Positions 7,173 to 19,692 of a DNA stretch of 64,000 nt are shown here, piece after piece. The DNA is from Chloroflexota bacterium (GTDB taxonomy: Bacteria; Chloroflexota; Dehalococcoidia; JACPEP01): contig JACPEP010000014.1 in assembly GCA_016183425.1 (NCBI GenBank), forward strand, positions 38,148 through 102,147, read 5' to 3'. The position numbers and the translations under genes are program-made. The notes below the pieces were generated by a model. That model saw only the letters and a program-made list of their open reading frames with translations. It had not been told where the DNA came from and made no database searches. Position 1 is the first letter of the stretch. Each line of letters begins with the position of its first letter.

Positions 7173-10100
7173 TTGAGGGTTCTAATTGACCTCGTGGCCC
7201 TTTACTTGTTCCTAGTGGTGGGCCTCGCCTACCTTGGCTACGGCGCTACGAGACTACTCTTACCGGTGTCTCTTTGGCGCTGGCAACCCCTCCTCACGCC
7301 GTTTCTAGGTTATGCGGTGGTGACCATCGTCTTCCACAGCCTAAATACTTCTTGGTTGAACGCAGAACAGTCCACAGTGGTGCTTTTGACCCTGACAACT
7401 GGACTAAATGCATTTGCCGTGGCCCGCCGGGGACGACCTCGTGCCCACCCGACATGGAAGGACGACTTGATCCCAATGCTACTCTCCTTCGGAGTCTACA
7501 TCGGGGCTACTATTCCGCTTATTAGCTATGGGTTTATAACAGTGGTGGGGACGAATGGAGACGTGGAGCAATACCTTGCGGGTGCAGATTACATCCGGCG
7601 CTTTAATCTCAGTGCGCTAGCTACTGCCCCCCCGAATCCGTTGCTGGATCTGGCTGCGAAATTAACCGGGCCCTTTGGCGGTTGGGGCTTTACCTACATC
7701 CTGTCCCTGGTCACCCTGATCCTGGGGTGGTCTGGCGAAAAGGCTTTTGCACCGCTCTTGGCCTTCCTGGTGGCTGCTAACGTGATAGCGATGCATCTCT
7801 TTGCCAGATCGGTTCTCGGTCTGTCATGGCGGGGGAGTGCTTTTGCCAGCTTTGCCCTTGGTGTGAATGGTCTCCTCCTCTGGACCGGTTTTTTCAATTA
7901 TGGCCGCCAGGTAGCGGTGTTGCCCCTCCTGCCTGTTGCCGCTTTAGCCTTCTTGGCTTCCTTCAGACATAGAAGTTGGCGCTCTATTCTGTTTGCCGCC
8001 CTTCTTTTTGCGGCGGTGACCATAACGTATCGCCCGGCAACGCTCTTGCTACTGGTATCGATGAGCATATTTGCCGCCATGACCATTGTCAGGGGACGCC
8101 ATAGGCTCAGACTGGCGGCTACGATAGGCGCCCCTCTTGCCCTGGGCTTTCTGCCACTAGGGGCCAGTTTACCCGAGTATATGACGCGAATTAGCCGAGT
8201 ATTCAGCGAGAGGGTTCTCAGCGGTAGTCCGATAAGCAAAACCCCGCTTTTCTCCGAATTTCTGCCCCTTAACCACCTCTATGGACTGTCTTACTACGTG
8301 TGGCCGGCTCCCGAGCCGGCAGGGGAGCGATTAAGCTCGACGCTGGTCTGGGTGGTCAATAACTCCGAAACAGGCGCGGTAGCTTTGTCTCTAGCCTTGG
8401 GCATCTATGCCCTCTGGCGCACGACCCGAGCGGGGCGGGATATGGCCCTAAGCCTGACAATGGCCTCGGCCCTGTTTCTCGGAGCAATGCGTCTGATAGA
8501 CGACCGTTATAGCTACTTTAAGATCCTTACCTTTTCTAGCTTTTGGGCCACTAGCTTGGGGGTGTTGGGGTTGAGCCTGGTCTGGCAAGCCGCCAGCCGA
8601 TCCAGGAGCAAAGCACTGGAGTCGCTCGGCAAGAATGGCCTCTCCCTCTTTGGTGTAGCATTCCTGTCCTTAGGCAGCATCAATGCCTATTTCACCATTA
8701 ACCATTTCCTTGGTAAGCCCCAGTCCCCCTTCGTAAGTCCCTACCTTGATGTTGCGCAGCTTTCCAGCATCATCGAGCCGCAGGCCTCCATATGTCTCAC
8801 TAGTGCTCCCAGTTTACAAGGTGGGGCGATGGGCGTCATTGCTTACTCATTGATGGCGTATCCTCTCTACCCCCTTTATGGGGGGATTAATACGGCGGAG
8901 AGCGGAACAGGGCCTCCCGTTCACCAAGGGTCCGCAGGTCGCTATTTTTCGGTCTCTAGTGGCAATAGAGGAAGGGAAACAAACCTCTGTGACTACGCGC
9001 TCCTCGCCGCCAGCGAGGAGCCCTCAGAATGGGGCTATTCAGCAGATTCCCTCGTGTGGGCCAATAAAGAGATCAAGGTTTATAGCCGAGAGGGCACTAT
9101 GGCTCATTTGCAATTTGACACGGGCAATGGCGGGCGCACTATAACCAGTGCCGAACCCTTCAGAACGATAGTTACCGCGGCGACCATGCCAGAAGTCAAC
9201 CCTGGGGATAGCCAATATCTTGTCATTCAGATGGGCACCTTTAGTAACCAGCAGCTAGTCGTGGAAATTGACGGTAAGGAAAATCGCGTGGCAATTGGCC
9301 CAGGCCTGTGGCGATACCAGTCAGAATCCACATACCTCCCGGCATCGGTGGCTATCAGATCTGAGGGCCCTGACCCAATTTTCCTGAACTGGTTGGAACT
9401 GAGGTATGGCTCGAGGCCAGCACCCTCAAAAACGAAACTCGAGAGAGCTCTGCTCCTGCAATCGGCGTCCATGCAACGGCCCGATAGCATTTTAATGCAG
9501 GTAGGTTGGTTGTCTCCAGAACCCCAGCTCGTCCGTGGCTGGATTGAGATCTGGGTGAGAAACAGGGCCAGTTCGGGGGACAGGTTCCTCATTGGCCGGG
9601 GGGCCTTGGACAAGGCTGACCACGAAATCCAGGTTCAGATGCTCCTCCCCGGCGGGCAGGCCCGCTCCCCAAGCACCGAATCGGGTGTCTCCCGTTGGAA
9701 CCCCGACTGGAGGGATGGAGAGTACGTTGGGGAGCTGTATATTGTCTTTGACGACTTGGTGCAGGATGAAGCATTGTCCGCTATCTGGCAGGCGCGGCCC
9801 GACCTTCGAGAGGCAGCCTCTAAATCTGGTTGGGAGCCTGGTCAGTGGAAGAAATTCATGCTGGACTGGTGGCAGGATACCCCAGAGGCGTCAGGAAAGG
9901 ACCGGGACATCGTGGCCTTTGCTAGGAAATCCATGGACTTCACCCCAAGCTATGAGCAGAAGGTAGCAGAACTGTTTACCTTAAGGTTGCGGCAGAATAG
10001 CGTCGTCGAGGCTGCGATGAATCACTATCCGTTTTTGCATCACTACTTCCCCCCCAGTCCCTGGACATCGGTGGACGAAATGTTCGGTAATACTGCTCGA

Positions 10101-16766: not shown

Positions 16767-16856
16767 GGAGAGGTGTCCGAGGGGTTGATGGTGCCGCTCT
16801 CGAAAAGCGGTCTCGCCGCAAGGTGAGCGTGGGTTCGAATCCCACCCTCTCCGCCA
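16767..16856 (+). tRNA. tRNA-Ser (anticodon CGA), long variable arm
   Basis: Acceptor GGAGAGG/CCTCTCC. Anticodon stem CCGCT/AGCGG with loop CTCGAAA. Long variable arm. T-arm GTGGGTTCGAATCCCAC. Discriminator G. CCA encoded. Confidence 0.9.
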
Positions 16857-16898
16857 CACGACGCTGGCCGAAAATGTGAGTACCTAGGTTCTTTTAGC

Positions 16899-16985
16899 GG
16901 AGAGGTGCTGGAGTGGCCGATCAGGCGCGCCTGGAGAGCGCGTGTCGCCGTAAGGTGACCGTGGGTTCGAATCCCACCCTCTCCG
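16899..16985 (+). tRNA. tRNA-Ser (anticodon GGA), long variable arm
   Basis: Same acceptor and T-arm as the first copy. Anticodon stem CGCGC/GCGCG with loop CTGGAGA. No encoded CCA. Confidence 0.9.
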
Positions 16986-17050
16986 TCAGCCTTACGCCAA
17001 GGCTACGGCTGGCAAGCCAGATAGAACACAAAGAAAATGGATGAGCAACT

Positions 17051-17602
17051 ATGAGCGCAAAATCAAAAGAGAAAGCCGTTGTCCTCACTGCTGATCAGTT
17101 TGAAGACATGGAGGTTTTCTTTCCTGTATTTCGTTTGATAGAGGAGGGGTGGCAAGTTGACGTTGCCGCCCCTAAAGTCGAAGAAATTCACGGTGAGAAT
17201 GGCTACTCTTTAGTTCCCGACAAAACCATTGATGAAGTGGACCCCGATGACTATGATCTGCTAGTCATTCCCGGAGGATCTCCCGATGGCGCACCAAGCA
17301 CCGTTAGACATGTTAAAAAGGCTCAGGAAATAGCAAAGGCATTCTTTAACAAAAATAAGCCGGTGGCTTCAATATGTCACGGACCATACACTCTGGTTTC
17401 TGCCGATGTGGTTAAGGGAAGGCATCTAACATCTTATTGGCATGATGGGGTGCCCGAAGAGATAAAACGAGCCGGTGGAATATGGGAAGATAATGAAGTA
17501 GTGGTTGATGACAATTTAGTAACATCACGCTGGCCAATGGATTTGCCTGCCTTTATGAGAGAGATAATAAGCCTCATCAAAAGGTCGAAGAGTAATAAGT
17601 AA
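17051..17602 (+). CDS. DJ-1/PfpI family protein (class I glutamine amidotransferase-like)
   Basis: Nucleophile elbow ASICHGP plus YDLLVIPGG. 183 aa, low GC. Confidence 0.85.
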   Translation: MSAKSKEKAVVLTADQFEDMEVFFPVFRLIEEGWQVDVAAPKVEEIHGENGYSLVPDKTIDEVDPDDYDLLVIPGGSPDGAPSTVRHVKKAQEIAKAFFNKNKPVASICHGPYTLVSADVVKGRHLTSYWHDGVPEEIKRAGGIWEDNEVVVDDNLVTSRWPMDLPAFMREIISLIKRSKSNK

Positions 17603-17686
17603 TAACATCAAACCAGATCTAGCCGAGGTTCCGTCAATAGGTTTGTAAAAGGGATCAAGCAACGGCGAGCATCTCTTCCTGCCTGA

Positions 17687-17854
17687 TTTCAACTCCGTGA
17701 ATTGGTAGCGCCTATTGGCAAACAGATTGAGAACCTACTGGCGCGGAACAGGAACCTCCGTGACACGCGCGACCTGCTATTGCCCAAGCTAATTTCCGGC
17801 GAGATCGAAGTATTGGAGCTGGATATTAAGACGGAAAGGTTGGAACATGAATGA
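17687..17854 (+). pseudogene. hsdS: C-terminal remnant (about 55 aa) of a type I restriction-modification specificity subunit HsdS
   Basis: FQLRELVAPIGKQIENLLARNRNLRDTRDLLLPKLISGEIEVLELD. The R(D)xLLPKLISGEI motif is the conserved HsdS C-terminus. An in-frame TGA at 17684 bounds it. No TRD or N-terminal part is present. Confidence 0.55.
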
Positions 17855-19073
17855 CATTCTATTTCATCAATGTGACCTGATATCCGTCATTCAGAACCAA
17901 GAGCGGAGCATGGCTGCAGAGATTGACGCGCTCCCCGAAAGCCGGCTGTTGAATACATCACTTGATGATCTCTGTGATTACTTTGCTCAGAAGTACAGCA
18001 TCGAGCCGCCTGAAATCAGAGAAGCTGATATCCAAGCTGACTATGGCGATGCAAAGATTGATGTGAGCGGGAGGGTTGAGTATGCTGTGTTTGATAGAAG
18101 CAGGCCCACTTACGTGACGGGAACGAAGCTCACCTTCTACGTACCATTCGAAGGTGACGCGAACCTCTTCAAATGTCGACCGTCAACATTCAACTTTAAT
18201 CCTCCAAGGGGGGAAGTAAGGAATGGTGAACTGGTAGTCACATACGAGCGCACGGTCTCGGATGCCCCGCAAATCGAATCCGAGTTCAAGCGAGACTTGC
18301 AAAATCTGAAAGGATACCTTGACTGGATCACGCGAGACGTGGCACCTTTCAATTCTTCTGTGCGTGAAAAGGCCCGGCAACGCATCGAAGCCAGGCGAGA
18401 AAAGTTGCTGAAGGATAGAGGATTGGCAGAGAAGATCGGCTTTCCGCTAAGAAGAAGAGAGGGATCGCCCCAGACATACGTTGCCCCGCAAGTGAAACGG
18501 AAGATTACTCCAAAGCTGCCGCCTGCATCTGGCGCGCCATTTATGCCAGAGCCGACGCTAGATATGCAGGAGTATGAGCACATACTCTCTGTGATATCCA
18601 ACATGGTACAGGTCATGGAGCGCAGCCCTCAGGCGTTTCGCGGGATGAAGGAAGAAGACCTACGGCAACATTTCCTGGTCCAGTTGAACGGGCAATACGA
18701 AGGCCAAGCTACAGGTGAAACGTTCAATTTCGGAGGTAAGACTGACATTCTAGTACGTGTCGAGGGCAAGAATATCTTCATCGCAGAGTGCAAGTTCTGG
18801 GAAGGGCCGAAATCCCTTAATCGGGCCATTGAGCAGTTGCTCGTCTATGCCAGCTGGCGCGACACCAAGACAGCGCTTCTGATATTCAACAGGGGTAGTA
18901 ATTTGTCCACCGTTCTCAGCAAGCTACCTGAAGTTATGAAAGCACATTCGAACTACAAACGTGATCTCCCGTTCAAGTCAGAAACGGGCTTCCGTTATGC
19001 ATTTCATCACCGGGATGACCCAAATCGGGAGCTTATCCTGTCTGTGTTGGCATTCGAGGTGCCCGCATCATGA
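17847..19073 (+). CDS. Hypothetical 408-aa protein with a C-terminal PD-(D/E)xK (restriction-endonuclease-like) nuclease motif. Candidate defence or abortive-infection effector.
   Basis: The start overlaps the hsdS-remnant stop (ATGAATGA). The C-terminal GGKTDILVRVEGKNIFIAECKFWEG matches the D...(E)xK core. The N-terminal approximately 290 aa have no recognisable motif. Low GC. Confidence 0.5.
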   Translation: MNDILFHQCDLISVIQNQERSMAAEIDALPESRLLNTSLDDLCDYFAQKYSIEPPEIREADIQADYGDAKIDVSGRVEYAVFDRSRPTYVTGTKLTFYVPFEGDANLFKCRPSTFNFNPPRGEVRNGELVVTYERTVSDAPQIESEFKRDLQNLKGYLDWITRDVAPFNSSVREKARQRIEARREKLLKDRGLAEKIGFPLRRREGSPQTYVAPQVKRKITPKLPPASGAPFMPEPTLDMQEYEHILSVISNMVQVMERSPQAFRGMKEEDLRQHFLVQLNGQYEGQATGETFNFGGKTDILVRVEGKNIFIAECKFWEGPKSLNRAIEQLLVYASWRDTKTALLIFNRGSNLSTVLSKLPEVMKAHSNYKRDLPFKSETGFRYAFHHRDDPNRELILSVLAFEVPAS

Positions 19074-19327
19074 CTGTCAATGTAAGGAAATACCCTCTCC
19101 ACCACTTGTCCATCATAGTTCCATGGCACGATTCAGGATGGGCGGGCATTGTATGCCAAGCACCCACGTTCAACGACGCGTGTCTAAAGCTGAAGCGTAT
19201 TGCCGACGGCAGAAATGACGTTAATGTCTTGTCCGCCCAACCCTATGTGCAGCCCCCCGGCTTCGCTACCACCCAGGTGGCTGAACCGAAAGCCGTTAGA
19301 GGGCTCAGTCAAATAAGCTTCCCTTGA
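19070..19327 (+). CDS. Hypothetical 85-aa ORF, translationally coupled (ATGA overlap). Possibly a truncated N-terminus at the island edge.
   Basis: ORF only. The start overlaps the upstream stop. It ends exactly where the high-GC flank resumes. Confidence 0.3.
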   Translation: MTVNVRKYPLHHLSIIVPWHDSGWAGIVCQAPTFNDACLKLKRIADGRNDVNVLSAQPYVQPPGFATTQVAEPKAVRGLSQISFP

Positions 19328-19329
19328 AG

Positions 19330-19692
19330 CTAGCCTTGCTTCCTGGACTCTTGGAACCGGGTCTGAAGCTCATCGCTGGCCTTCACGGCGGCCTTCCTCC
19401 CCTCCTCCACGGCCTCCTTCATCAGCTCAGAGCCCTCATCCAAAACTACCTTGCTCTGGGCCAAAAGCTCGTCCGCCCTGGCCCTTGCTTTTGCGCTCAG
19501 CTCCTGGCCCTGCTCTCGGGCAACCGCAGAAAGCTCCTCGGCCAGGTCTTTGAACTCCAACCCCTTCTCCCGTAACTTCTGGCGCGTCTCCTGGCCAGAC
19601 TGGGGCGCTAGTATAAAACCCAGAAAGGCCCCCACCAACCCCCCCAGCACAAAGCCTGTCCAGAAGCCGGCCCCTCCACCGTTACTAGCCAT
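19330..19692 (-). CDS. YtxH-like stress protein
   Basis: MASNGGGAGFWTGFVLGGLVGAFLGFILAP (glycine-zipper TM) followed by a Lys/Glu-rich helical region, typical of the YtxH family. Start set at the internal Met. Confidence 0.55.
   Translation of the reverse strand: MASNGGGAGFWTGFVLGGLVGAFLGFILAPQSGQETRQKLREKGLEFKDLAEELSAVAREQGQELSAKARARADELLAQSKVVLDEGSELMKEAVEEGRKAAVKASDELQTRFQESRKQG

Follow-up and report, generated by a model that had tools for sequence, protein, structure and literature searches.

Introduction

The phage defence candidates (PDCs) are a set of 145 systems that were chosen by "guilt-by-embedding" inside BREX, DISARM or type I restriction-modification (R-M) loci, with PrrC named as the archetype of R-M-embedded genes (bioRxiv 10.1101/2024.01.29.577857). 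They entered the PADLOC collection as candidates lacking experimental testing (Payne, Hughes, Fineran & Jackson, bioRxiv 10.1101/2024.01.29.577857). Eight PADLOC candidate systems were later tested (PMC12881386); PDC-S54 was not among them, and in the literature searched no mention of it was found, nor any domain analysis, structure or phenotype. This study focused on a PDC-S54 gene in a 64,000 nucleotide (nt) stretch of a Chloroflexota genome (contig JACPEP010000014.1), hereafter called the window. The gene specifies a protein of 408 amino acids (aa) in which an N-terminal domain of unassigned fold and a linker precede a C-terminal PD-(D/E)xK nuclease, and elsewhere the N-terminal domain (N-domain) is encoded separately, beside other types of effector.

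Among described systems, S54 works most like other single-gene proteins that combine a variable N-terminal region with a C-terminal PD-(D/E)xK nuclease, such as Shedu and the Mrr-like type IV enzymes. A preliminary description, made from the DNA alone, had likened the architecture to that of Shedu/DUF4263-like or Mrr-like proteins, but membership of these families was not borne out by any sequence test: DUF4263/SduA was unmatched in Pfam or PADLOC at E values up to 1, as were Mrr_cat and Mrr_N in Pfam. The two-gene Hachiman system also uses a PD-(D/E)xK nuclease (HamA), together with a helicase (HamB), whereas the window protein has neither a helicase partner nor a PADLOC match to HamA, and the helicase found beside genes encoding only the N-domain carries a caspase domain as well. 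The type II enzymes BamHI, BglII, BstYI and OkrAI share just 7-14% identity with S54 and lack its additional N-domain of ~200 aa and linker. Unlike type II R-M systems, there is no cognate methyltransferase gene in the window, and a methyltransferase cluster neighbours S54 in only 5 of 80 related loci (one per species, with proteins 48-66% identical to that of the window). Judged by sequence, the window protein is not a Shedu, Mrr, HamA or type II enzyme.

Two further comparisons are instructive. The N-terminal nuclease of HsdR, like RecB-family nucleases, has its D ... ExK ... QxxxY motifs on secondary-structure elements that correspond to those of S54 (PMC2475608), but S54 has no helicase motor, and its nuclease is C-terminal in a small protein rather than N-terminal in a translocase. 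Like PrrC, S54 can lie within a type I R-M operon and be co-transcribed with it as a stand-alone effector, as seen in ~10% of loci, but PrrC is an ABC-ATPase/anticodon RNase that is almost exclusively embedded, while S54 is a PD-(D/E)xK protein mostly found outside R-M loci. The window copy is orphaned, its R-M operon having decayed to a 55-codon hsdS tail.

The PDC-S54 Gene and Its Family

A 408 aa open reading frame (ORF) had been described at 17847-19073, and was confirmed at exactly these coordinates:

17847..19073, + strand: PDC-S54 gene, intact, 408 aa (ATG-to-stop ORF, PADLOC profile match)

A Shine-Dalgarno-like GGAAAGG lies 10-16 nt 5' of the ATG. No sigma-70-like promoter was detected between the preceding DJ-1 gene and the 408-aa gene, by a scan that may not suit the host organism. 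The identical protein, with the same flanks, occurs in three independent metagenome assemblies.

Searches of Pfam, NCBIfam, PDB sequences and PDB profiles with the whole protein returned nothing significant, the sub-threshold Pfam matches being to pPIWI_RE_REase (E 0.1) and HSDR_N (E 0.15) over residues 289-335. The PADLOC PDC-S54 profile, on the other hand, matched residues 2-406 over profile positions 2-407 of 410 (E 6.6e-162, 537.6 bits). The protein is of the usual length (408 aa against ~407 aa for the family) and agrees with the family at every column whose conservation is 85% or more in a set of 144 divergent representatives (39-54% identity). By these sequence criteria it is a full-length member of a catalogued candidate family, and nothing in it differs from that family. 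The preliminary description had been right to see a candidate single-gene defence nuclease, and its view that the protein could not be placed in a named family is superseded by the PADLOC entry. The PDC nomination rested on embedding in BREX, DISARM or type I R-M loci, and such embedding is found here in the hsdS tail of the window and in four of the related loci (L016, L021, L034 and L048). It is from genomic context of this kind that a defence activity would be deduced for PDC-S54.

The family is very large and uniform. A word-indexed search recovered 4,933 matches. In an exhaustive search, with clustering at 50% identity, 4,902 clusters scored E <= 1e-3, and 1,639 of them reached E <= 1e-30. 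Of the 150 best matches, almost all were 400-420 aa long and aligned over their full length. Members span bacteria and archaea, and have no Pfam domain.

Predicted Structure and the Nuclease Domain

An AlphaFold2 model built on 121 homologues (mean predicted local distance difference test score, pLDDT, 82.6) contained two well-folded domains, residues 1-197 and 240-408, with a low-confidence linker between them. The predicted template modelling score was 0.48 because the relative orientation of the two domains is undefined. The C-terminal domain and its candidate catalytic residues are:

18564..19070, + strand: PD-(D/E)xK nuclease domain, aa 240-408 (predicted structure, motifs)
18651-18653, + strand: candidate catalytic E269, conserved, in the first helix
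18744-18746, + strand: candidate catalytic D300, at the start of the second core strand, before strand 301-305
18786-18794, + strand: candidate catalytic E314-C315-K316, in the third core strand (308-317)
18834-18848, + strand: QxxxY motif, Q330-Y334, in the following helix (321-334)

Conservation of these positions was close to complete, with D300, E269 and Q330 present in all 144 representatives, E314 and Y334 in 143, and K316 in 138. The modelled domain has the alpha-beta-beta-beta-alpha-beta core of the PD-(D/E)xK superfamily. Its highest fold-match scores were to BstYI (8.6), BamHI (8.5), OkrAI (8.4) and BglII (8.1), followed by CdiA-CT (7.6), McrC (7.5), NucC (6.9) and LlaBIII (6.8), and then, at lower scores, by Can2, NgoMIV, HamA, NucS and Cas4. 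Foldseek against the PDB gave no match at E <= 1e-3; its top match was McrC, and the nucleotidyltransferases Pol-lambda and TUT7 that it also returned were rejected as spurious (root-mean-square deviation 12-19 Å).

Assignment of the C-terminal domain to the PD-(D/E)xK nucleases is therefore solid by modelled fold and motifs, its active-site residues being candidates. The preliminary description had reached the same assignment, quoting the peptide at residues 296-321 (nt 18732-18809), and the check that it proposed, a fold search with an AlphaFold model, yielded the restriction-endonuclease core. Pfam and NCBIfam gave no match to a housekeeping family. Its statement that the first ~290 aa carry no motif holds for residues 1-197, an unassigned domain, but not for what follows, which is linker at 198-239 and nuclease from 240 onward.

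The sub-type is less firmly placed. The QxxxY motif typifies nucleases of the RecB family and also occurs in the HsdR nuclease domain (PMC2475608). Profile alignment (hhalign) with four HsdR N-termini placed the D, ExK and Q in register, but with a P value of 0.003 and a probability of only 9.9%. Among 121 family members, HSDR_N was weakly matched by 29 and pPIWI_RE_REase by 22, the best E value for HSDR_N (1.1e-3) falling under the Pfam gathering score. These sequence data suggest a RecB/HsdR sub-type. The nuclease is nearest to RecB/HsdR enzymes in its motifs and nearest to BamHI-like enzymes in its fold.

N-Terminal Domain and Linker

The remaining parts of the protein are as follows:

17847..18437, + strand: N-terminal domain, aa 1-197 (predicted structure; fold without known relative)
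18438..18563, + strand: linker, aa 198-239 (predicted disordered, Pro-rich, basic)

The modelled N-domain consists of three helices, a four-stranded antiparallel sheet and a helix of ~55 residues (142-197). No relatives were found in Pfam, NCBIfam, PDB sequences or PDB folds, and Pfam and structure searches gave no likeness to SRA, EVE/YTH, winged helix or Mrr-N domains. It is the fast-evolving, variable part of the family, with a mean column identity of ~0.38 against 0.73 for the nuclease core. The linker contains 9 Pro and 7 Lys/Arg residues, and its pLDDT falls below 50 at 205-222 and 227-235. Despite this predicted disorder it is conserved across phyla (GFPLRRR..TY..P.VKRK..P.LPP....PEPTLD), and such conservation suggests that it is more than a passive tether and is a functional peptide, for example one that is autoinhibitory or that binds a partner or DNA.

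Separable N-Domain and Nuclease Modules

A stand-alone homologue of the N-domain, ~201 aa in length, was found in three places, two of them conjugative alphaproteobacterial plasmids and the third a chromosomal contig, directly upstream of a gene for a protein of ~1,035 aa. It matches positions 10-199 of the PDC-S54 profile (E 1e-31 to 1e-33), is 26% identical to residues 1-198 of the window protein (E 4e-24), and its C-terminus coincides exactly with the end of the long helix. A caspase (Peptidase_C14) domain and a HamB-like DEAD-box helicase are joined in the downstream protein, and the surroundings of these loci contain TIR, caspase and PLD genes. The Cupriavidus stand-alone gene has a different neighbour, which encodes a full-length ThsB-like TIR protein (E 2.7e-108). 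The stand-alone N-domain gene is thus directly upstream of a caspase-helicase gene in three loci and of a ThsB-like TIR gene in one, at these positions within their own contigs:

L091, 6953-10665; L092, 6992-10709; L094, 6001-9719; L093, 6001-7822: stand-alone N-domain loci

Two further contexts gave no information on neighbours, one being broken by a Tn7-like element and the other lying at a contig edge. The stand-alone sub-family comprises at least 120 clusters and, as far as could be told, the arrangement of an N-domain gene with a downstream effector gene is an undescribed one.

The nuclease can also part from its usual N-domain. Two plasmids encode 344-aa proteins in which an S54-type nuclease (profile positions 245-408, E ~1e-38) follows a different N-domain of ~175 aa:

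L097, 3467-7892: locus with the 344-aa nuclease protein, E. coli IncHI2 plasmid pEC_CBJ3C
L098, 3740-4774: 344-aa nuclease protein, Pantoea plasmid

The N-domain of the Pantoea protein weakly resembles an HsdS target-recognition domain (TRD), and the E. coli gene is followed by one for a 1020-aa DEAD-box helicase with weak similarity to PbeA, HsdR and HamB.

From these homologies, the S54 N-domain is a portable module, elsewhere encoded alone beside other effector genes. A more specific proposal, which is offered tentatively, is that it represents an undescribed infection-sensing or regulatory module coupled to at least three unrelated effectors (the fused nuclease, and in trans the caspase-helicase and the ThsB-like TIR protein), with the conserved linker of predicted disorder acting as a regulatory tether. 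If that were true, the result would be a new modular immune-system family, in which the window gene would represent the form with a fused nuclease.

Distribution and Genomic Context

A pattern scan of 185,579 species genomes produced only 456 confirmed stretches, so that the distribution is sporadic. Hosts of the 80 related loci included Chloroflexota, Gemmatimonadota, Proteobacteria, Cyanobacteria, candidate phyla radiation (CPR) bacteria, and Asgard and Bathyarchaeia archaea, and 13 plasmids bear full-length S54 copies. Such taxonomic breadth at 48-66% identity, together with the plasmid-borne copies, points to horizontal spread. Phage genomes gave just two weak matches in 50,697 records.

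When all neighbours within 10 kb were clustered across the 80 loci, no conserved partner gene emerged. The commonest neighbours were HsdM-like proteins (8 loci) and HsdR (6), then serine recombinases, N6/N4 methyltransferases and replication-relaxation proteins (5 each). Other contexts included GmrSD, SIR2, type III R-M, conjugation genes and integrases. In the four R-M-embedded loci the operon is otherwise intact, in the order hsdM, hsdS, S54, sometimes other genes, and hsdR. In L016 and L021 the hsdS stop and the S54 start share 4 nt, a type of junction that the window has also preserved.

Among 110 immediate neighbours at 55 loci, the type I specificity subunit was the top PADLOC family (5 cases), against none among 110 ORFs more than 6.5 kb away. 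Other defence genes, among them PDC-S39, GajA, CARF, Old, AbiL and MADS, occurred in both near and far sets. Overall counts of PADLOC families (204 near, 70 far) are inflated by redundant HsdS models and serve for qualitative use only.

Two observations were made on individual loci. Peptides resembling the hsdS tail (..LLPKLISGEI.. / ..LLPRLMSG..) lie directly on both sides of S54 in L021 (9912-9986 and 11392-11448) and L034 (1815-1870 and 3106-3150). In these two unrelated operons it looks, from the sequence, as if a cassette recombined into the 3' end of hsdS and duplicated it. In two Dehalococcoidia genomes, a full-length homologue (E 2.6e-220) of PDC-S39, another PADLOC candidate, is directly upstream of S54 (L007 and L011, both at 8020-9915).

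Flanking Remnants in the Window

The window gene lies between two gene fragments:

17687..17854, + strand: hsdS remnant, last 55 codons plus stop (PADLOC Specificity_I models, tblastn)
19070..19327, + strand: 85-aa stump ORF, PDC-S68 N-terminus followed by unrelated read-through

The translation of the upstream remnant ends in ...RDLLLPKLISGEIEVLELDIKTERLEHE, and its stop codon (17852-17854) overlaps the ATG of the 408-aa gene, in a different frame, within ATGAATGA. The 55-residue tail was matched by 25 PADLOC Specificity_I models (best E 2.9e-10), covering only profile positions 407-453 of 458, and its tblastn matches in L048, L034, L021 and L016 were to the C-termini of intact HsdS ORFs that lie directly upstream of S54. 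It had no match in Pfam, the PDB or a tblastn search of plasmids. An in-frame stop at 17684-17686 directly precedes the remnant, and therefore only the tail of hsdS remains.

Downstream, residues 8-51 of the stump (nt 19091-19222) match PADLOC PDC-S68 (E 5.2e-14), but only over profile positions 3-46 of 1221. Proteins of the PDC-S68 type are large RecD-like SF1 helicases of ~1200-1500 aa. A tblastn search with the stump picked out plasmid genes annotated as 'AAA family ATPase' and 'RecD-like DNA helicase', over their first ~50 codons, and one full-length relative was a protein of 1493 aa with AAA_30 and UvrD_C_2 domains. Apart from itself, the 57-aa S68 stump had no match in a protein homologue search. 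At 19330, three bases past the stump, a convergent YtxH gene begins, and the body of the helicase gene has therefore been deleted. An exact-match look-up of the YtxH protein for an empty site found nothing. The start of the stump overlaps the stop of S54 (ATGA), indicating that translational coupling once existed between S54 and an S68-type gene. A two-gene S54 and S68 system was considered and rejected, since the 80 genomes contain no conserved partner and an S68-like N-terminus was beside S54 in none of 86 other loci.

Directly left of the hsdS remnant (16767-17602) are two tandem tRNA-Ser genes (anticodons CGA and GGA) and then a DJ-1/PfpI gene with a GC content of 0.447 and a third-position GC content (GC3) of 0.41. 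The GC content of the remnant itself is 0.50-0.53, and both values are below the window mean of 0.571. It is possible that the region serves as a hotspot of tRNA-linked integration. At 19092-19105, 13 of 14 nt repeat the tRNA-Ser 3' end; this copy was considered as an att site, but is probably due to chance because it falls inside conserved S68 coding sequence.

The 408-aa gene is thus the one gene left intact of a cassette, in the order hsdS, S54 and S68-type helicase, that was embedded in a type I R-M operon. Of hsdS, deletions spared the last 55 codons, and of the helicase gene the first ~50.

Discussion

The reading preferred here is that PDC-S54 is probably a single-gene, horizontally mobile defence nuclease that follows a sensor-effector logic. 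Its restriction-endonuclease fold bears a PD-(D/E)xK/QxxxY motif set that is complete and invariant, its N-domain is separable, and it is autonomous, having no conserved partner. The gene is also mobile and sporadic, and is found in defence islands and embedded in R-M operons. On this reading, the N-domain would serve as a sensing, regulatory or oligomerising module, oligomerisation possibly occurring via the long helix. A phage-derived cue would lead it to act through the conserved tether and license a Mg2+-dependent DNase, which might then cut either invader DNA or all DNA indiscriminately, as in abortive infection.

A different possibility is that S54 is a solitary, type IV-like or otherwise DNA-directed restriction enzyme, in which the N-domain recognises a feature of the DNA, such as a modified base or a particular structure, at which the BamHI-like domain makes its cut, with no signalling or abortive infection. 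Several features would fit: the nuclease is solitary, and no cognate methyltransferase is conserved beside it (the N6_N4 methyltransferase cluster of 5 in 80 loci), its best fold matches are type II enzymes that cut double-stranded DNA as dimers, the long helix at 142-197 could dimerise, the basic linker could touch DNA, and a sister architecture joins the same nuclease to an N-domain that is weakly HsdS-TRD-like. However, the S54 N-domain resembles none of the SRA, EVE/YTH, winged helix or Mrr-N readers, there is no Mrr_cat or McrB/C-type sequence signal, and the same N-domain pairs in trans with caspase-helicase and TIR effectors, which need no DNA-site reader. Such an enzyme is accordingly considered unlikely, though less so than a selfish or mobile-element function. 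In that case S54 would be a toxin or addiction nuclease, a homing-type endonuclease or an accessory of recombination; it would spread with integrative elements, inserting where the 3' end of hsdS is conserved, and would not be an immune gene of benefit to the host. The neighbours of S54 do often include integrases, serine recombinases, relaxases and Tn7-like genes, it has been transferred across domains of life at high identity and is carried on plasmids, and the hsdS-tail-like sequences flanking it in L021 and L034 hint at recombination into hsdS. The case for a selfish function is weakened by the lack of a fixed tie to any one recombinase or element type, of an adjacent antitoxin-like small gene, and by the near-absence of S54 from phages. 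S54 is also translationally coupled inside otherwise intact R-M operons, and its domains recombine with bona fide immune effectors (ThsB-like TIR, caspase and HamB-like helicase), so that this explanation is thought improbable. Least probable is a housekeeping nuclease of DNA repair or recombination (NucS, RecB or Cas4-like) with coincidental defence neighbours: the sporadic distribution of S54 among species genomes, its varied neighbourhoods, the plasmid-borne copies, the embedding in R-M operons and the lack of a housekeeping family match all speak against it.

Among the candidate defence families that are uncharacterised, PDC-S54 is one of the larger. What is added here is its anatomy, namely the domain boundaries, the full set of RecB/HsdR-type motifs and an N-domain without a known fold, and also the recognition of that N-domain as a swappable module common to caspase-helicase and TIR partners; of the new results, this modularity is the most informative. 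As for the window copy, it is chiefly an illustration of how type I R-M-embedded defence cassettes decay, with one gene left over. While another candidate nuclease is in itself unsurprising, the size of the family, the unassigned fold of its N-domain and the new caspase-helicase and TIR pairings make it a good experimental target. If it proves to be antiviral, a widespread single-gene nuclease system would be added to those known, possibly with a new sensor domain.
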